The position numbers and the translations under genes are program-made. A stretch of 64,000 bases of DNA, from the NCBI GenBank assembly GCA_963746185.1, contig CAVVAE010000003.1, forward strand, positions 11,387 to 75,386, in the 5' to 3' direction. Of this stretch, positions 50,138 through 59,017 are shown piece by piece. Under the pieces are notes generated by a model. That model saw only the letters and a list, made by a program, of their open reading frames with translations. It was not told the DNA's origin and searched no databases. The first letter of the stretch is position 1. Each line of letters begins with the position of its first letter. The stretch comes from an uncultured Actinomycetota bacterium (GTDB taxonomy: Bacteria > Actinomycetota > Actinomycetes > Propionibacteriales > Nocardioidaceae).

Positions 50138-53100
50138 TCATCTCGGCGACTGGGCGAACCCGACCGCGTTGAGGAAGAGCCGCTCGCCCGACGTCGTCCA
50201 GCCCATGTCGGGGCCGACAGCGCCAGTGACCGCCATCGATGCGAGCAGCACCTCGACATCGTTGTGGGTGACCCATCTGAACGTGGCGCCGTTGCCGACG
50301 CTCGATCCTCCGTTGTTCAAGGTCACGCGCTGAGTCGCAAGCCGCGGACCCTTGTAGGACTCGATCGTGGAGTAGTAGCTGCCCTCAGTCAGGATCGTCG
50401 CCGGGTTGGAGATGCCCGCGAACAGCGCGTGCCGCCGGTCCTGCTCGGTCAGCCGCACCGAGCCATCGCCGTACCCGTCGCTCCCGACCTTGACTCGATC
50501 GGTGAACTTCTCCAGCAGCCGGATGCCACCTTCGCTGCCCCACGTGCCGGTCCAGACCACGCCGGTATGGCTGGCGCGGGTGGCTGCTTCGAGAGAGTTG
50601 AACTCCGCCTGAGACACGGTGCCGCCGCCGCTCCCGTTGACCACCACGGCGTCGTACGCCGACAGGTCCATCTTGGTCGACCATGGCACCTTGCCGGCAG
50701 CGACGTCGTGCTCCCGAAGGAAGTCGACGACCTGTCCGTCGACGTCACCCACAACACCGACGTCGATCGACGTCAGTTCGACGTTGTGTGTCGTCTCCGG
50801 GCCGACGTAGTCGATCGTCGACTCGTCGGTCAGGTAGCCCTCAGCTGCCACCGCGATGGTGTACTCGCCGTCGAGCAGACCAGACTGCGAGTAGTGACCA
50901 CCCGCGTCAGTCATGGTGCGGAAGCCCTCGACACCTGAGCCGATCACCGTCGCCCCTTCGACTGGCTGCCCCCCGTCATCGACAACCGTGCCGCTCAGCA
51001 CGCCGCGCGCCAGTGGCTCGAGCGCGATGTCGGCCGTCACCTGTTCGGAGTCGGTCACGGTGACCTGCTGACTCGAGGGTTGGTAGCCCGTCGCTTCCAC
51101 CGTGACCGTGTAGGTGCCGTCGGGTACGCCGATGGCGTAGCCGCCTGCTTCATCCGTGACGTCAGACGCACCCAGCTCGGTGATTCTCACGTCAGCGCCG
51201 ACCACGGGATCGCCGCCCGACGTCACAGTGCCGTTGATCTCACCCCGGGTTGCAGTCGCGGCAAACGACACCGCATTGAGGTAGATCCTTTCGGCTGCGG
51301 CAGTCCACTCATCGCCGGGACGACCGTAGGTGCCGGCCGTGAGGCTTCCGAGCAGCACCTCGACGCTGTCGGTGGAGGTGTAGGCAACGCCCACCCCGCC
51401 TCCGAGCTTGCTGCCATCAGCGTCGTTGTGCAGGTCGGCAATCGTGGTACCGCTGTAACCACCGAAGGTGAGGTATTGCTGGTTGCCACCCTCTGGATCG
51501 TTGATGATCGTCACCGGCTCGCCCGCGTCGAAGCCGGCGAAGATCGGGTGTCCACTGACGGGGACATAAGAAACCGGACTCGGTACGAAGTCATAGTCGA
51601 CCGATGCCGGGTCGCCTCTGAGGTCATGGAGACTTCCGATTGCGTCGCCGCCCCACTGGCCGCCGAACAGCACGGATACGCCGTTGTCGGCCGCCGCGTT
51701 GAGCGTCGCGTTGAACTCGCCAAGGAAGGCGGAGCTGACCCCACGGTTGAAGACCACCACGTCGTACTCGTCGATCTGCTCCCGCAGCGTTGACAGCTCG
51801 GTGGGGGTGTAGTCGGTCACGGTGTAGCCGTCAGTCGCGAGCAGGCCTCGAACGCTGCCGAGGTAGTCACCGACGAGTGCCACCGGCACCGAGGGATCGA
51901 GCTCGAGATCAGCCGTCGCGGCTTCTCCCGCCACGATCGTGACCGGCACGCGGCCTGTCTGTAGCCCAGTCGCCGATGCGGAAACCCGGTAGTCCCCGGC
52001 AGGCACACCCTCGATCAGGAACGAGCCGTCGGCGGACGTGGTCGCCGCGAAGGCAGTTCCGTCGACCCGTACCGTCGCGCCCGAGACCGGAGCCGCGGAC
52101 TCGTCGGTCACGGTGCCCGAGACGTCGCCCGCAGGCAGTAGCGCAAGCGCGATGTCGCGACTCACCGACTCGCCGACTCCGACGGTCACTGAGACCTCGG
52201 ACGACGCATGGTTGGTCGCCTCCCCACGCAAGGTCCAGGTCCCGGCCGGAAGTCCGACGACATAGTCGCCATCTGCCGCGACGTCGTAGCGGCGGCCGGT
52301 CTCGACCACCGTCACGGTGCCGGCGACTGGCCCGGCCGCGCTGGTCAGCGCACCCTCGACCTGTCCACCTGCGGGCGGCGCATCGAGTGCGTAGCGGACG
52401 GCGTTGCGCAACAGCAGTTCAGCCTGCGGACTCCAGGCGTCGCCGACAACGTCGTCGTAGCCAGCGAAGCCGTACGTCGACATCGACAGCGTGCCGAGGA
52501 GCACGTCGACGCCTGCAGCGCCACGCGGCCGCTCACCGACGAGCCCGCCTCCGTCGAGCACGTCCGACGACACGGTCGCGAGAGTGTCGCCACTGAAGCC
52601 GTCGAACCATGAGTACTCCGAGCCGTCGTCGATCAGCTTGAACGTCGACGGAAGCCCAGCCATGATCGGGTGATCTGAGTCCTCGACCTGGACCGTGACG
52701 GCTCCGTCGGAGCGGTCCTCGTTGTTGCCAGTTGGGTCGCCGGTGTAGTCGGTCAGGTAGCGGAACGAGCCGCGCCCGAACTGGTCGAGCCACACCACCG
52801 AGATGCCGGCACGAAGCGCCGCCGAGTCAAAGGCCTGCAACCCTGCCCTGCCGGGGTCGAAGCCCGCGTTGTTCGCGTTGTTCGCAATGACGAGGTCCAG
52901 GTCAGCGATCGCTGCTGTGTCGGACCAGCTCAACGCCTGCGGCGTGTAGCCCCAGTGCGTCAGCCAGGCGGCGACCTTGCCCTGGTAGTCGTCAATCACG
53001 CCGACGCGTGCGGTGACTCGAAGGTTGACGTCGTACGACGTGGGAGCCCCAGCCGTCACGTTGACCGCGTCACGATCGCGTAGATAACCATCGTGGGTGA

Positions 53101-56100
53101 CATCGACCTGGTAGTTACTCGGCTCGACCCGAGGCAGCACGTAGGAGCCGTCGGACGCCGTCGTAGCCAGCCTCGGTGCACCAAGCAGGCGCACGGTGAC
53201 ACCGGCGACCGGCTGACCGTCAGACGTCACGACTCCGCTGAGGCTTCCATCGTCGGCCTTCGGGGTCAGTGCGACATCGGACGTGACTGCACCACCGTCG
53301 TCGATCGACACCTCGCGGGTCGTCTCGTCATAGCCGAAGCCTGCGTAACGAATGGTGTAGTCGCCTGGGGGCAGGCTGAGCGTGTAACTGCCGTCTGCCG
53401 CCGTAGGTGTGCGCTGCTCCGTGCCGTCGACCGACACAGTGCCACTGACTGGGGCACCCGCCTCGTCTGACACCGTGCCGGAGACCGAGCCCAGTGCTGG
53501 ATCGGCTGCGAAGAGCACCGAGTTGGCGTAGAGCCTGCGACCCTGCGCCGTCCAGTCCTCTGACGCTTTCAGCAAGATGTCCGATGTCATGCCGCCGAGG
53601 AGCAGATGGATGCTCGACGGCGTACGTGGTTGATACGTGATGCCGACACCATGGGAGCCGCCGAGCTCGGAGACCACATCGGCGACCGGGAAGCCGGTGT
53701 AGCCAGGGATGGCCGTCGAGTAGTTGTTGGCGGTGAGCACTGGCGGGTTGGCGGGGAGACCGTCGAAGATGGGATGGGACGCATCAGCTGCAGAGAAGCT
53801 GACCTCGCCCTCGTCGTCGAACTGCGCCCGTGGCTGGGACGGGTTGCCGTTGAACTGCCGGAGCAACCGCACTCCCCCGTCACTGGAGAAGTAGCCGTCA
53901 CCGAAAACGCCGCTGACGCCGTTGGCGTCCATCGCCGACTGCCAGCTGGCGAACTGCGCCACTGTCGGCGTAGTCGGGTCGTTGAACACCACCACGTCGA
54001 GGTCGGGGATGCGCGCCGTGGATGTCCACGTCAACTGTTCAGTCGTGAGGCCCCTGACCTGGAGCACGGTCGCGATCGTGTTCTGGTAGTCGCCCATGAT
54101 GCCGACGTGCGGCGCTGTATCAAGGGTGACATCGGCCGTAATTGTCTGGCCTCCGACGATGGTGACGTCCTGGCTGTAGGGCAGGAAGCCGGTGGCCGCG
54201 ACACTCAACGTGTAGTCCTCGGCAGGTAGGCCGCTGACTGTGTAGGTGCCGTCGGACGCCGTGGTGGCGTTGAACGTCGTCCCGTCGATCGTGACGGTTG
54301 CACCCGCCACCGGTTCGCCGTCCCCATCGCTCACTGTGCCGGTCACCGAGCCGAGCTCAGCCGGCGTCATCGTGACGTCGACGGTTTGCGTCTCGCCTCC
54401 CGTCACGGTGACGTCGCGCTCAACAGCGGCCGCTCCGGTCGCGCGGAATCGCAACGTGTAGGTGCCGGGGTCGAGGACCAGCTTGTAGCTGCCGTCGGAC
54501 GCAGTACTGGTGTGATAGCCGGTGCCGACGGCGGTGACGGTGGCCGCCGCCGGAGCGCCACCTTCGCCAGTCACGGTGCCGTGTACGACACCGTAGTCGG
54601 CATCGATCGCGTAGTCGACCGCGTTACCGATGAGCTGTTCGGTGATGGGAAGCCACTCAACGTCCGGCCGGCCCCAAGGGGCAGCCGCGAACGATGACAA
54701 CAGCACATGCACGCTGTCGGTCGAGCGCGGTTTGTAGGCGATGCCGGACCCGACCTCGCCCTTACCGTCCGTATGCAGGCTGGCCAGATTGACTCCGGAG
54801 TAGCCGTTGAACGCTGCCCACTCATTGTTCGCCGCCAGCACCGGTACGCGGCTGCCCACGGTCAACCCTTCGGTGAGTGGGTGCTCCTGGCCGGCGATCA
54901 GGGAGACTCGGCCGCTGCCCGTGGAGTCGGTAACGACACTCGCTGGGTCACCGGTCTGGTCGGAGAGGTTGAGGATGCTGCCGTAGCCGATGCTCCACTG
55001 ATCGAGCCAGATCACGCTGGTCCCAGCCGCGTCGGTGGCGTCGATGAACGGCTGGATCACTCCGGCCGCGGGTCGGTCCTCGGCCCCATTGGCGAGCACC
55101 ACGTCGTAGTAGTCGGGGTGCGCGGTGACTTCGGCGTACGACGTCGTGTCAGCCGGGTAGCCGAGGTCTTCGAGAACTCCGACCATGCGGCCCTGGTAGT
55201 CACCCATGACTGCGACCTGATAGCGGTCGAGCGTCACGGGCTGGTCAGTGGTCTGACCCGCCGTGACCGAGACTTCGGTGGTGTAAGGAACGAAGGCGTC
55301 CTTGTCGACGCGGAGCTGGTAACTTCCGGCCGCGATGGTTGCGAACGAGAAGGTGCCGTTCGCAGCTGTGGTGGCTGGGTCGAGCGGCGTACCTTCGAGC
55401 ACTACCTCGGCACCTTCGATGGGATTGCCGTCGCCATCGAGCACGGTGCCAGTGACGGAACCGGTGCCAACGGGCGTGAGGGCGAAGTCGGCCGACGTGA
55501 TTTGCCCGGCCGCGATCGTCACCTGCTGGCTCTCGTCAGAGAACCCGTAGGCGCTGGCCTGCAGCTGGTAACTGCCCGGTCGGTGGTCGAGCTGGTAGTC
55601 CCCAGTTGCGGGGTCCGTGGTCGTCAACGCACCTGTGTCGGTGATCGTGACGGTGGCGTCGAGAGGTCCGTCCGGACCCGTGACCGTGCCGGTAACTCCG
55701 CCCGTGGTGCGGTAGGCGTAGAGCATGCCGCTGGTGTCGCCGGTGACAAACGTGCCGTCGTCGTACGCACCGCTGCTCGTGACATTGGCGTCGACGTCGT
55801 CGACCCACACGCGCTTGCCGGTCACCGCGTCGAGCGCAAAGAGCACACTGTCGATCTGTGAGCCACCGATGACGTAGCCATCTCCGGTCGTCATCAACGA
55901 GGACGAGACCGGGCCAGTGTCCTGGTGGCGCCAGGCCACCGTGCCGGTGATCCGGTCATAGGCCACGACAGCGCCGTTGGCGTGCGTGCCGCTGATGACC
56001 AAGTCGCCGTAGATGGCTGGGCTGCTGCCTTGCGCGTCGCCATGCGTGCTGTTCTGCCACGCGATGGTGCCGTCGTCGGCGTTGACTGCGAGGAACGTGC

Positions 56101-59017
56101 CGTCCCAGGCCGCATCACTGGTCGTGGTGACGTAAACGAGCCCATCGGAAACGGTCGGGGCGCTGTAGAACGTGTCGTCGTCACGTTGGAGGGTCCAGGC
56201 GACTTCGCCGGTGGAGGTGTCGAGTGCCACGAGACGGCCCTCGTCAGCGCTGGTGACGTAGAGCTGGCCGCCGTCGACGGCCGGGCCGTTGAAGATTCCG
56301 GCAGCGACTGGTGTGCTCCACAAGACCTCGCCGGTCATCAGGTCGATCGCGTAGACCGAGTCGGCGACTTCCGAGGGTCCGGTGTTGGCGTAGACGACGC
56401 CGTCCACCACAGCGGGCTGGGTGTACACGGCCAGCTGGCCCGGAGTCGCGACGTGCCACAGCACGTCGCCCGTGGCGGCGTCGAGAGCGGTGAACCCGCC
56501 GGCCAGACCACCGCCGATGACCACGACTCCGTCAGAGACTGCTGGGCTGCCTCGAAGCTGGTCACCGACGTCGTAGCGCCACATGAGTTCGCCCGTGTCG
56601 AGGTTTCGTGCCTGCAGCTCGCCCGAGATCGTGCCGACATAGACGATGCCGTCGGCGATGACTGGCGAGGCGAAGGTGATGCCGGTGCCGGTGTCGACCG
56701 ACCACTCACGCCGGAGCGTGTCGGGGGCCACGGCCTTGCTCGTGTATCCGCTGTGCGCACTGTTGTTCTGGTACTGCGTCCAGCCATTGTCGGTGGCGCT
56801 GGCGAGTGGTGCGAGGGTCGGGTTCAGCATCTTGGTCTTCGGGATCGACACCGTCGAAGACCAGGGCTTGAAGCCGGTGGCTCGTACTCGTACGACGTAC
56901 TCGCCAGCAGGGATGCTCGTCGAGAACTTGCCGTTGCTGCCGGTGAAGACGGGGTCGACACCAGAACCGTCGAAGCTCACCTCTGCACCGGCGACTTGGC
57001 CGGCGGGCCCGGGCGCCGACCTCACGGTGCCGGAAACGGCGTGGTTCTTTGCGGACTTGAGGTCGATTGTCCGCGTCAAGGCTGAACCGGGCGTGATCTT
57101 GACCGGAACGTTGGCGGTCTGAAAACCAGGTGCTGTCACGCGGATGGTCTGGTTGCCTGCGGGGACCGTGAGCTGGAACTGGCCGGCGTCGTTGCTGGTG
57201 GTGTTCCATCTGGTGCCGGAAACGACGAGCTTGGCGCCGGCAACCGGCCCGGCTTTGCTTGTCACGGTGCCGCTCACGGTGCCGGAGTTGATGGCCTTGG
57301 TAACAGCGGCGTACGCGTCGACGATGCCGTTGCCGTAGTCGTTGTCGGGCAGGCTGCTGCCCATGTGCGACTCCTGCCGGGCGGTGCTGGTCAGCATCGT
57401 CTCGACGTCGTCCACGGTGAGGTTGGGGTTGGCGGCCAGGAGCAGCGCAGCCACTCCGGACACGTGCGGCGTTGCCATCGACGTACCGCTCAGTTCGACG
57501 TACTCGCCTTCGCCGAGCGACGTCGGGAACGACGAGTAGATGTGGTGCCCGGGGGCGGCGATTTCTGGCTTGGTGTAGTCGACGCCCTCCCAGCTGACGG
57601 GTCCGCGGCTGGAGAATCCTGCGACGACATCGTTGAAGTCCGTGGCACCGACCGCAAAGGAGTTCGGGAAGCTGCCTGGCGAACCGACGGTTGTAGGACC
57701 AGGTCCGTCGTTGCCATTGGCGAAGATCGGCACGATGCCAGCCGCCCTCCACGCTTCAACGTCGCCCCAGTACTGCGTGTTGTAGGTGTCTGCTGAGCCC
57801 CAGGAGTTGCTCACGAGGTCGGGCGCCGCGGTGGGGTCGCCACCTGGCGCGAGCATCCACTCGAAACCGCGGTGGATGCCGCTGGTGCTGGCGCCGCCGC
57901 CGTCGCTGAAGATCTTGGCGGCGATCCAGGTGGCCTTCGGCGCGACGCCGACGACCTCGCCGGGGGCGCCGCCGACAATGCTGCCGGCGACGTGGGTGCC
58001 GTGCCCGAAGCCATCGCCCGGGGCCGGGTAGTCCTCTGACGTAGCGACGAACCAGCTCTTCTCGAGGTCACCGGTGTTGCCGCGCCACGAGCCGGCGAGC
58101 GCGGGGTGGCTACCGTCGACGCCGCTGTCCATGATGCCGACGACGGTGCCTTGACCACGGTCATCGAACTCGCTCCACACCTGCGGAGCATGCACGCGCT
58201 CCAGTCCCCAGGTAGGCAGCTTGGGTCCGCCCTCGAGAGGCTCGGGGGTGGGCTCCTGGATCATGCCGTCGACGGTGACACTGGCGACGTCGGGGTGACG
58301 GGTGAGCCGGTTCAGCGCTTCGCTGTCGACGGTTGCGGAGAAGCCGTTGAAGATCCAGTACGGCTGGACTTTGGTCGCATGTCCGTCTGTGCGAAGTTGC
58401 TGGAACAGCGACGCCACTGAGGATCGTTCGTCACCGGCGAAGGATCGGAGTGCGTCGACGACAAGTGTGGACTTGGCATCTTGGCCGGCATCGGCGACGC
58501 GACGGTTCTCGGTCGCCTGCGAGAGGTCGCGGCTGTTGAGCTGCGTACGCCGCGTCAGTGCCGCGTCGAGTGCAGCCGCATCGGCGTCAGTCGCGAGCGC
58601 AGTCATATCGACCTGCTCACGAAGCCGGACGATGACCGCCACGTCGTCGCCGTCCGCTGCCTCACGAGTGACCTTGGGGGCGACGCCGGTGTCGGGCAGC
58701 AACACCGACTCGACGGCATCGTCATCTGCGTCGGTGCGGGCGGAATCGATCGACGTGACCGGAAGTCCGTCGGTGATGTCGGTGGCGCGGCCGTAGTCGG
58801 CCTTGGTCTTCGCGGCGGGACGCGAAGGCGCTGCGGTCGCCGCAGCGGTGGTGTCCGAGGTCGAGGCAGCGGCCTCGATTGCCGCTCCGAGCGAGGATGC
58901 TGGCTGTGCCGACGACGGCTGGTTGGACGCGTGCGCCGGCGAGCCGGGCAACAGCGTGACGGTGAGAAGAGCGGACGCGAGAGCAGGCAGCAAACGGCTG
59001 CCAAGGCGTGCGGACAA
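50138..59017 (-). CDS. Giant secreted subtilisin-like serine protease (S8), 2,959 aa, multidomain
   Basis: TTG start with a G-rich SD. Sec signal MSARLGSRLLPALASALLTVTLLPGSPAHA. I9-like propeptide (aa 124-255). Catalytic triad motifs GIMDSGVD (D297), GHGTHVAG (H339) and SGTSMATPHVSG (S513). Twelve CarboxypepD_reg-like domains, a PQQ-like propeller, and five alpha/beta modules of about 205 aa. Confidence 0.95.
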   Translation of the reverse strand: MSARLGSRLLPALASALLTVTLLPGSPAHASNQPSSAQPASSLGAAIEAAASTSDTTAAATAAPSRPAAKTKADYGRATDITDGLPVTSIDSARTDADDDAVESVLLPDTGVAPKVTREAADGDDVAVIVRLREQVDMTALATDADAAALDAALTRRTQLNSRDLSQATENRRVADAGQDAKSTLVVDALRSFAGDERSSVASLFQQLRTDGHATKVQPYWIFNGFSATVDSEALNRLTRHPDVASVTVDGMIQEPTPEPLEGGPKLPTWGLERVHAPQVWSEFDDRGQGTVVGIMDSGVDGSHPALAGSWRGNTGDLEKSWFVATSEDYPAPGDGFGHGTHVAGSIVGGAPGEVVGVAPKATWIAAKIFSDGGGASTSGIHRGFEWMLAPGGDPTAAPDLVSNSWGSADTYNTQYWGDVEAWRAAGIVPIFANGNDGPGPTTVGSPGSFPNSFAVGATDFNDVVAGFSSRGPVSWEGVDYTKPEIAAPGHHIYSSFPTSLGEGEYVELSGTSMATPHVSGVAALLLAANPNLTVDDVETMLTSTARQESHMGSSLPDNDYGNGIVDAYAAVTKAINSGTVSGTVTSKAGPVAGAKLVVSGTRWNTTSNDAGQFQLTVPAGNQTIRVTAPGFQTANVPVKITPGSALTRTIDLKSAKNHAVSGTVRSAPGPAGQVAGAEVSFDGSGVDPVFTGSNGKFSTSIPAGEYVVRVRATGFKPWSSTVSIPKTKMLNPTLAPLASATDNGWTQYQNNSAHSGYTSKAVAPDTLRREWSVDTGTGITFASPVIADGIVYVGTISGELQARNLDTGELMWRYDVGDQLRGSPAVSDGVVVIGGGLAGGFTALDAATGDVLWHVATPGQLAVYTQPAVVDGVVYANTGPSEVADSVYAIDLMTGEVLWSTPVAAGIFNGPAVDGGQLYVTSADEGRLVALDTSTGEVAWTLQRDDDTFYSAPTVSDGLVYVTTTSDAAWDGTFLAVNADDGTIAWQNSTHGDAQGSSPAIYGDLVISGTHANGAVVAYDRITGTVAWRHQDTGPVSSSLMTTGDGYVIGGSQIDSVLFALDAVTGKRVWVDDVDANVTSSGAYDDGTFVTGDTSGMLYAYRTTGGVTGTVTGPDGPLDATVTITDTGALTTTDPATGDYQLDHRPGSYQLQASAYGFSDESQQVTIAAGQITSADFALTPVGTGSVTGTVLDGDGNPIEGAEVVLEGTPLDPATTAANGTFSFATIAAGSYQLRVDKDAFVPYTTEVSVTAGQTTDQPVTLDRYQVAVMGDYQGRMVGVLEDLGYPADTTSYAEVTAHPDYYDVVLANGAEDRPAAGVIQPFIDATDAAGTSVIWLDQWSIGYGSILNLSDQTGDPASVVTDSTGSGRVSLIAGQEHPLTEGLTVGSRVPVLAANNEWAAFNGYSGVNLASLHTDGKGEVGSGIAYKPRSTDSVHVLLSSFAAAPWGRPDVEWLPITEQLIGNAVDYAIDADYGVVHGTVTGEGGAPAAATVTAVGTGYHTSTASDGSYKLVLDPGTYTLRFRATGAAAVERDVTVTGGETQTVDVTMTPAELGSVTGTVSDGDGEPVAGATVTIDGTTFNATTASDGTYTVSGLPAEDYTLSVAATGFLPYSQDVTIVGGQTITADVTLDTAPHVGIMGDYQNTIATVLQVRGLTTEQLTWTSTARIPDLDVVVFNDPTTPTVAQFASWQSAMDANGVSGVFGDGYFSSDGGVRLLRQFNGNPSQPRAQFDDEGEVSFSAADASHPIFDGLPANPPVLTANNYSTAIPGYTGFPVADVVSELGGSHGVGITYQPRTPSSIHLLLGGMTSDILLKASEDWTAQGRRLYANSVLFAADPALGSVSGTVSDEAGAPVSGTVSVDGTEQRTPTAADGSYTLSLPPGDYTIRYAGFGYDETTREVSIDDGGAVTSDVALTPKADDGSLSGVVTSDGQPVAGVTVRLLGAPRLATTASDGSYVLPRVEPSNYQVDVTHDGYLRDRDAVNVTAGAPTSYDVNLRVTARVGVIDDYQGKVAAWLTHWGYTPQALSWSDTAAIADLDLVIANNANNAGFDPGRAGLQAFDSAALRAGISVVWLDQFGRGSFRYLTDYTGDPTGNNEDRSDGAVTVQVEDSDHPIMAGLPSTFKLIDDGSEYSWFDGFSGDTLATVSSDVLDGGGLVGERPRGAAGVDVLLGTLSMSTYGFAGYDDVVGDAWSPQAELLLRNAVRYALDAPPAGGQVEGALTSAAGPVAGTVTVVETGRRYDVAADGDYVVGLPAGTWTLRGEATNHASSEVSVTVGVGESVSRDIALALLPAGDVSGTVTDESAAPVSGATVRVDGTAFAATTSADGSFLIEGVPAGDYRVSASATGLQTGRVPVTIVAGEAATADLELDPSVPVALVGDYLGSVRGLLATDGYTVTDYTPTELSTLREQIDEYDVVVFNRGVSSAFLGEFNATLNAAADNGVSVLFGGQWGGDAIGSLHDLRGDPASVDYDFVPSPVSYVPVSGHPIFAGFDAGEPVTIINDPEGGNQQYLTFGGYSGTTIADLHNDADGSKLGGGVGVAYTSTDSVEVLLGSLTAGTYGRPGDEWTAAAERIYLNAVSFAATATRGEINGTVTSGGDPVVGADVRITELGASDVTDEAGGYAIGVPDGTYTVTVEATGYQPSSQQVTVTDSEQVTADIALEPLARGVLSGTVVDDGGQPVEGATVIGSGVEGFRTMTDAGGHYSQSGLLDGEYTIAVAAEGYLTDESTIDYVGPETTHNVELTSIDVGVVGDVDGQVVDFLREHDVAAGKVPWSTKMDLSAYDAVVVNGSGGGTVSQAEFNSLEAATRASHTGVVWTGTWGSEGGIRLLEKFTDRVKVGSDGYGDGSVRLTEQDRRHALFAGISNPATILTEGSYYSTIESYKGPRLATQRVTLNNGGSSVGNGATFRWVTHNDVEVLLASMAVTGAVGPDMGWTTSGERLFLNAVGFAQSPR
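50147..55699 (-). repeat. Five tandem protein-level supermodules (about 365-370 aa each) inside the giant protease gene
   Basis: Each is [CarboxypepD_reg-like x2]+[alpha/beta module of about 205 aa]. Coordinates: 54599-55699, 53504-54589, 52379-53491, 51257-52366, 50147-51244. Landmarks recurring in every copy: GSVTGTV/GVLSGTV starts, V-G/A-V-x-G/D-D-Y, YDVVV.N, HP(I/L)..G(L/F), V.(V/L)LL, NAV.(Y/F)A. Confidence 0.85.
55709..56785 (-). other. PQQ-like/BamB-like beta-propeller domain of the giant protease (aa 745-1103, approximate)
   Basis: Repeated blades of the form SPVIADGIVYVGT..GELQARNLDTGELMWRY, SPAVSDGVVVIGG...FTALDAATGDVLWH, QPAVVDGVVYAN...VYAIDLMTGEVLWS, GPAVDGGQLYVTS..GRLVALDTSTGEVAWT, and so on. 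Confidence 0.75.
57308..58165 (-). other. Peptidase S8 catalytic domain of the giant protease (aa 285-570, approximate)
   Basis: The D297 codon is 58127-58129, H339 is 58001-58003, and S513 is 57479-57481 (checked against the nucleotide sequence). Confidence 0.9.

Follow-up and report, generated by a model that had tools for sequence, protein, structure and literature searches.

Predicted ThuA-like modules on TTR stalks, repeated five times in a secreted S8 protease of an uncultured Nocardioidaceae bacterium

The class-I glutamine amidotransferase (GATase1)-like fold, its superfamily and the non-catalytic uses to which the fold is put are already known. ThuA (PF06283; 1T0B, 4JQS) belongs to this superfamily and is cytoplasmic, free-standing and encoded in a sugar operon. 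In the GH42 middle or trimerisation domain (PF08532), the IFT52 GIFT domain and DUF4350/GldG, the fold lacks the catalytic triad and serves as an accessory part of larger extracellular or assembly proteins (PMC5898192). The N-terminal domain of Aspergillus Agd3 (CBM87), which is closest to 3RHT and a ThuA-like protein and also lacks the triad, binds galactosaminogalactan (PMC7229062). In the Bacteroides levan SGBP, the domain that binds levan is similar to the ThuA-like protein 1T0B (bioRxiv 10.1101/2022.08.15.503959), and carbohydrate or PelB binding has been suggested for a similar alpha/beta domain of PelA (10.1101/2024.06.28.601253). Agd3 CBM87, the levan SGBP and PelA give a direct precedent for the fold as a glycan binder. 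Here we describe a predicted relative of these domains that occurs five times in a single secreted protease. The gene lies in a 64,000-nucleotide stretch of contig CAVVAE010000003.1 (assembly GCA_963746185.1) from an uncultured Actinomycetota bacterium of the Nocardioidaceae; this stretch is called the window, and all coordinates refer to it.

Like CBM87, the module appears to be non-catalytic, belongs to the same fold class and is carried by an extracellular enzyme, a likeness that is one of fold class and published description (PMC7229062). Unlike CBM87, which is present in one copy and has a deacetylase as its partner enzyme, the module is present in five copies and its partner is a protease. 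It also differs from ThuA in being extracellular, repeated and fused to transthyretin-like (TTR) and S8 domains.

The five modules and their predicted fold

The gene (50138..59017, minus strand) starts with TTG and, as read from the open reading frame list and its translation, encodes a secreted, modular S8 protease of 2959 amino acids (aa). The original prediction had singled out positions 54599-55222 of the minus strand as one copy of a recurrent alpha/beta module, and these positions do correspond to aa 1266-1473 of this reading frame. We place this first copy, M1, at 54593..55228 (aa 1264-1475), based on alignment, AlphaFold2 modeling, Foldseek and hhalign. Alignment and profile searches place three of the other copies, also on the minus strand, at 53492..54118 (M2, aa 1634-1842), 51245..51895 (M4, aa 2375-2591) and 50141..50773 (M5, aa 2749-2959). 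The remaining copy, M3 (52373..53017, aa 2001-2215, minus strand), was placed by Pfam and profile searches and is the only one with a direct, sub-threshold Pfam match to ThuA. M5 is the last domain of the protein and the most diverged of the five, having DR in place of the GDP motif and HA in place of the HP motif.

The modules are about 210 residues in length and share 26-38% pairwise identity over about 205 aligned residues. In BLASTP comparisons between copies the weakest pair, M3 and M5, gave an E value of 2e-14 and M1 and M3 gave 7e-29, and a profile made from copies in other proteins recovered all five at E values of 1e-51 to 4e-65. Similarity of this degree is well outside what chance would give. 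The shared motifs listed in the original prediction were all seen in the five-copy alignment: V(A/G)V.GD, YDVVV.N, GVSV.W/F, GDP, HP(I/L), GYSG, V.VLL and W...NAV..A. The conserved residues of M1 are D1273, N1310, D1339, W1341, D1357-P1358, H1379-P1380, Y1406, G1408 and W1455.

M1 was modelled with AlphaFold2 from the five-copy alignment, which gave a confident model (pLDDT 86.7, pTM 0.89). Its N-terminal half alternates between beta and alpha elements, whereas its C-terminal half is mostly beta and is closed off by a helix. When the model was run against the PDB with Foldseek, 14 matches were obtained at E ≤ 1e-3 (9e-6 to 1e-3) with TM scores of 0.55-0.64. All are GATase1 or GATase1-like proteins, and the unrelated fold that would have argued against the original prediction was not among them. 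The catalytic proteins matched are GMP synthase subunit A (2a9v; E 9e-6, TM 0.60-0.64), HisH, Pdx2 and PhzE. The model also matches fold members that lack the GATase triad, these being the IFT52 N-terminal domain (5fms), the GH42 middle domain (5xb7, 6lvw), NDST1 and homoserine O-acyltransferase. The M1 model thus falls within the class-I GATase-like fold superfamily (Pfam clan Glutaminase_I), whose mark is a flavodoxin-like alpha/beta core to which an antiparallel beta subdomain is added, and the module is predicted to have a flavodoxin-like alpha/beta fold of the class-I glutamine amidotransferase type.

Each module is preceded by a pair of TTR-like (CarboxypepD_reg) domains encoded on the same strand. 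The pair of supermodule 1 (55229..55699, aa 1107-1263) was placed by Pfam, AlphaFold2 and Foldseek, whereas Pfam placed those of supermodules 2 (54119..54592, aa 1476-1633), 3 (53018..53491, aa 1843-2000), 4 (51896..52372, aa 2216-2374) and 5 (50774..51244, aa 2592-2748). In an AlphaFold2 model of the 369-residue TTR-TTR-M1 unit (pLDDT 90.7, pTM 0.76), residues 1-157, the TTR pair, are all-beta with pLDDT values of 91-97 in ten-residue blocks. In Foldseek the pair resembles the TTR domain of carboxypeptidase D and the stalk domains of pilins and adhesins (SdrD B), and the supermodule again matches 2a9v through the module (TMt 0.64). A Foldseek search with the whole unit found no solved multi-domain precedent for TTR-TTR-module, only separate TTR/pilin-type and GATase matches. 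The model suggests that TTR-TTR-M1 would be a fairly fixed three-domain unit.

Relation to ThuA and loss of catalytic residues

Scans of the single copies against Pfam and NCBIfam gave nothing above threshold, only one weak ThuA match and two matches at chance level. The ThuA match is that of M3 (21.2 bits, E 3.9e-4), which lies under the Pfam ThuA gathering cut-off of 33.4 bits; the other four copies had no match to that family. When 68 diverse copies were scanned at E < 1, DUF4350 was matched weakly by three (best E 1.2e-4) and ThuA weakly by two, and no Pfam family other than these was matched. The DUF4350 matches are too weak for membership of that family. A search of PDB sequences with the five-copy profile returned only a chance protocadherin match. 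The profile of 68 non-redundant copies found 3rht, a "(GATase1)-like protein", at E 0.009 and 1t0b, a "ThuA-like protein", at E 0.12. The family to which 3rht may belong, PF07090 (GATase1_like), has no member in the 26 related genomes.

A profile-profile comparison of the kind proposed in the original prediction points to ThuA. Small reference alignments for ThuA (14 sequences), DUF4350, GH42M and catalytic GATase were drawn from related genomes and compared with the 68-copy profile using hhalign. The module aligned to ThuA with a probability of 96.7% (E 3.7e-10) over 180 of about 210 columns, its HP(I) motif falling on the HP(I/S)T of ThuA. The probabilities for GATase, GH42M and DUF4350 were 38%, 11% and 2.9%, respectively, values that rule out these three as the closest family; among themselves the reference families gave 36% at most. 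GH42M and DUF4350 have the same fold, but their profiles align poorly with that of the module and show no detectable relation to it beyond the clan level. Of the four families compared, ThuA is therefore the specific relative, and DUF4159, which the original prediction also named, gains no support. ThuA and the module share the fold and the order of secondary structure elements, and their HP(I/L)xxG(L) motifs and C-terminal W/NAxxWA helices line up. By these profile data the module is truly, if distantly, homologous to ThuA.

Five histidines (H13, H86, H109, H125 and H192) are nearly invariant among the 14 ThuA domains, lying after β1, after β4 and in the sHP, HPIT and GH motifs. H125, the His of the HPI motif, is the sole one retained by the module (97%). 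H86, whose place after β4 is that of the GATase nucleophile, corresponds to a column of Asp, Gly and Ser, and the counterpart of H109 is the Asp of the GDP motif. For H192 the matching column is Leu/His, with His in 19% of module copies. H13 lies outside of the aligned region, and in the loop after β1 the module has Asp10.

These alignments bear on a simple alternative, that the modules are ordinary ThuA domains of trehalose or 3-keto-disaccharide metabolism that the Pfam threshold has missed. The hhalign score and the sub-threshold match of M3 speak for it. Against this, only two of 68 copies match ThuA even at E < 1 and none reaches 33.4 bits, one conserved His of five is retained, and the domain occurs outside the cell as part of a protease, not in a cytoplasmic sugar operon. 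Moreover, a whole-genome scan found no true ThuA in this genome (best 19.9 bits), although ThuB and the trehalose-operon partners were not looked for. The failed threshold and lost histidines have already largely refuted this alternative, which we find very hard to credit. Judged on the same two features, the module is not a member of the ThuA family proper, and no curated family covers it. Note that true ThuA domains in three genomes of the same order lie within open frames of 1822-2009 aa, so that here giant proteins can contain genuine ThuA domains as well.

Conservation was counted over a non-redundant set of 146 copies taken from other proteins, many of which share no more than about 25% identity. 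The catalytic GATase1 proteins (PF00117; 2A9V, HisH, Pdx2) include the best Foldseek matches of the module (TM 0.60-0.64), but differ from it in having an elbow Cys nucleophile and a His-Glu pair past the last core strand, both of which the module lacks. There is no nucleophile column: column 75, which follows β4, is Asp in 49%, Gly in 24% and Ser in 18% of the copies and is never Cys. In the M1 model β4 is joined to the next helix by a seven-residue loop instead of a tight nucleophile elbow. The original prediction had noted the lack of a conserved Cys, which proves to be an understatement in that no column holds more than three Cys residues and the entire 2959-residue protein contains none. 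The Ser or Cys nucleophile of the peptidases that share the fold (S51 dipeptidase E, C26 gamma-glutamyl hydrolase and C56 PfpI) is likewise missing, and no Pfam match to these peptidases was seen at E < 1. The earlier view of a non-catalytic class-I GATase-like or ThuA-like domain is thus supported by the model and its Foldseek matches, by the hhalign comparison, by the weak Pfam and PDB matches and by the lack of a Cys or Ser nucleophile column.

The most conserved positions are not confined to Gly, Pro and hydrophobic residues. Asp10, directly after β1, is conserved in 95% of the copies, Asn46 after β3 in 73%, and column 77 after β4 is aromatic in 75%. The GDP loop has Asp92 in 66% and Pro93 in 92%, the HP loop has His115 in 97% and Pro116 in 90%, and residue 140 of the GYSG motif is Tyr or Phe in 91%. 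This conserved polar and aromatic set exceeds the needs of a scaffold.

Could these residues form a new Asp/His active site, with or without a metal, so that the protein would combine a protease with five accessory domains of the hydrolase or lyase kind? In favour are the conservation of D10 and H115 in 95-97% of the copies and the position of their loops after strands, which is where GATase1 and flavodoxin-like folds carry active sites. A ThuA-like-fold domain of dimethylformamidase is also known to hold a mononuclear iron site (PMC7686228). However, the mixed Asp/Gly/Ser column after β4 and the long loop provide neither a nucleophile nor an elbow for one, several conserved acidic residues are missing from copies 4 and 5, four of the five ThuA histidines are lost, and five tandem copies point to avidity over catalysis. 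We consider such an enzyme improbable.

Distribution, age and a putative binding role

When 1.84 billion representative proteins were scored with the five-copy profile at a threshold of E ≤ 1e-3, 240 were found to carry the module, and the family is therefore rare. Of 208 matched proteins, 67 contain five full-length copies of the module and 94 just a single one. An S8 domain is present in 110 of the 118 module proteins that look N-terminally complete, and a TTR domain lies no more than 25 residues ahead of the module in 444 of 471 cases. Given these frequencies, the evolutionary unit is [TTR-TTR-module], which travels with subtilases. The single-copy proteins sampled have an S8 domain, two TTR domains and the module followed by Ig-like domains (He_PIG, CARDB, TIG), and one of them is annotated as from a Dehalococcoidia bacterium. 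Further architectures are those without a recognisable S8 domain and those with an added dockerin plus CARDB.

Full-length five-copy orthologues (2900-3270 aa) occur in Jiangella, Hamadaea, Micromonospora, Ornithinimicrobium, Alkalihalobacillus and metagenome-assembled genomes of Gaiellaceae, and share 33-69% identity across the part of the tail used as query (aa 1264-2215). In 92% of 10,400 cross-protein comparisons a given copy was closest to the copy at the same position of the other five-copy protein, indicating that the five-fold arrangement is older than the divergence of the orthologues and that each position has been separately maintained. This genome has the five copies in one gene; the module was absent from the 25 related genomes searched (15 of the same family and 10 of the same order). 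The gene is thus patchily distributed, having been either acquired horizontally or lost widely.

The novelty lies in an uncurated family that has conserved residues of its own, near-obligate TTR and S8 partners and an ancient, position-specific five-fold array. Sequence comparison shows that a ThuA-like domain, in which Asp-rich columns have taken the place of two of the lost histidines, was recruited to extracellular S8 proteases of Actinomycetota, Chloroflexota and Bacillota and accompanies them near-obligately. The assignment supplies a fold and a name for about 35% of the sequence in a family of 3000-residue proteins, and the module is a clean target for a new Pfam/InterPro family.

We propose that the five modules are non-catalytic, multivalent ligand-binding exosites, putatively for glycan and/or Ca2+, that attach the protease to a polymer-rich target, and we give this proposal a probability of about one half. 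Its starting points are the observed repeat, fold, ThuA homology, loss of catalytic residues, S8 and TTR link, and age and position-specific conservation of the array. The active-site crevice of flavodoxin-like and GATase1 folds is formed by the C-terminal ends of β1, β3 and β4, which adjoin one another. The module, a diverged and non-enzymatic homologue of the ThuA domain from which the amidotransferase nucleophile and four of the five ThuA histidines have been lost, may have retained a pocket at these strand ends, made up of the Asp after β1, the Asn after β3, the Asp or Gly plus an aromatic residue after β4, and the GDP and HP loops. Because an acidic, amide-bearing and aromatic crevice is conserved in a domain that has no nucleophile, a binding site is to be preferred to a catalytic one. 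In Agd3 CBM87 conserved aromatic residues lie at this C-terminal end of the sheet (PMC7229062). Each module would be perched on its stalk of two TTR domains. With five such three-domain units following an active S8 protease and a β-propeller, the tail would probably act as a set of exosites by which the secreted protease is held on, or aimed at, a polymer-rich target, for example cell wall, biofilm matrix or detrital polysaccharide.

A more specific and only tentative version of this proposal is that the modules constitute an unnamed "protease-associated ThuA-like" family in which an Asp-rich pocket bearing an aromatic platform took the place of the ThuA His cluster, and that the five non-equivalent, order-fixed copies act as a Ca2+-dependent, multivalent glycan-reading array which directs where the subtilase cuts. 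If the pocket does bind glycans, these would be proteases addressed by carbohydrate-binding modules (CBMs), in parallel to the CBM-bearing glycoside hydrolases, and this would have a bearing on how soil bacteria attack proteins embedded in polymers.

The main rival explanation gives the module no pocket for a small ligand or glycan and sees it as a bead whose role is solely one of structure or oligomerisation, in spacing, self-association or protein-protein contact. The GH42 middle domain and the IFT52 N-terminal domain are among the Foldseek matches, the DUF4350, GldG and GH42M relatives have been proposed to form complexes (PMC5898192), and the module rides on TTR stalks in a supermodule predicted to be fairly fixed. 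However, near-invariant Asp10 and His115, together with the Asn, Asp and aromatic residues at the strand ends, persist in copies only about 25% identical, which is unusual for a spacer, and the hhalign probability for GH42M is just 11%. A structural role of this kind seems to us rather unlikely.

Several points weigh against the binding proposal. In GH42 trimerisation and in IFT52, non-catalytic domains of this fold mediate contact between proteins, and a scaffold or oligomerisation role fits these precedents equally well. That the conserved residues form a single pocket, and that this pocket binds a ligand, are both inferred, and the ligand is putative; the placement of D10, N46, D75, W77, D92 and H115 together on the surface is deduced from the strand order of flavodoxin-like folds. 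The genomic context offers no clue to a ligand, in that the Jiangella orthologue is surrounded by unrelated genes and has no conserved operon partners. Finally, across the orthologues the Asp after β4 is kept mainly in copies 1-3, copy 4 having Gly or Ser and copy 5 Gly, and in most copy 5 sequences the Pro of the GDP motif is Arg or Glu and that of the HP motif is often lost. One identical site in all five copies is therefore impossible. This position-specific decay of the putative pocket suggests that the five copies have different roles.

Layout of the host protease

The protein has a Sec-type signal peptide ending in ...PAHA/S, which Pfam shows to be followed by an I9 propeptide, Peptidase_S8, two CarboxypepD_reg domains, a PQQ_2/BamB propeller and a long tail. 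The Peptidase_S8 catalytic domain (57326..58156, minus strand, aa 288-564; PF00082, E 1.4e-54) has intact triad motifs, DSGVD at residue 297, HGTHV at 339 and GTSMA at 511, and the oxyanion motif NSWG at 404. Pfam recognises 12 CarboxypepD_reg stretches in the whole protein. In the tail only further domains of this type are recognised, and the unassigned gaps between them are the five modules.

The PQQ_2/BamB-type β-propeller (55718..56719, minus strand, aa ~767-1100; PF13360, E 8.7e-46, and PF13570, E 9.2e-40) is placed between the protease head and the repeat tail. A propeller is present in 59 of the 67 five-copy proteins and in almost none of the single-copy ones. Several orthologues are called "alpha-amylase" in UniRef, and NCBI uses "carboxypeptidase regulatory-like domain-containing protein"; neither name captures the S8 protease or the five modules.

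The C-terminus of the reading frame (50138-50143 of the window) coincides exactly with the end of module 5, and the closest metagenomic homologues (2902-2955 aa) likewise end there. The Jiangella, Hamadaea, Micromonospora and Ornithinimicrobium orthologues have an extra Ig-like C-terminal extension of 110-250 aa beyond module 5. The GC content of the gene is 0.65-0.67, the same as that of the rest of the window.

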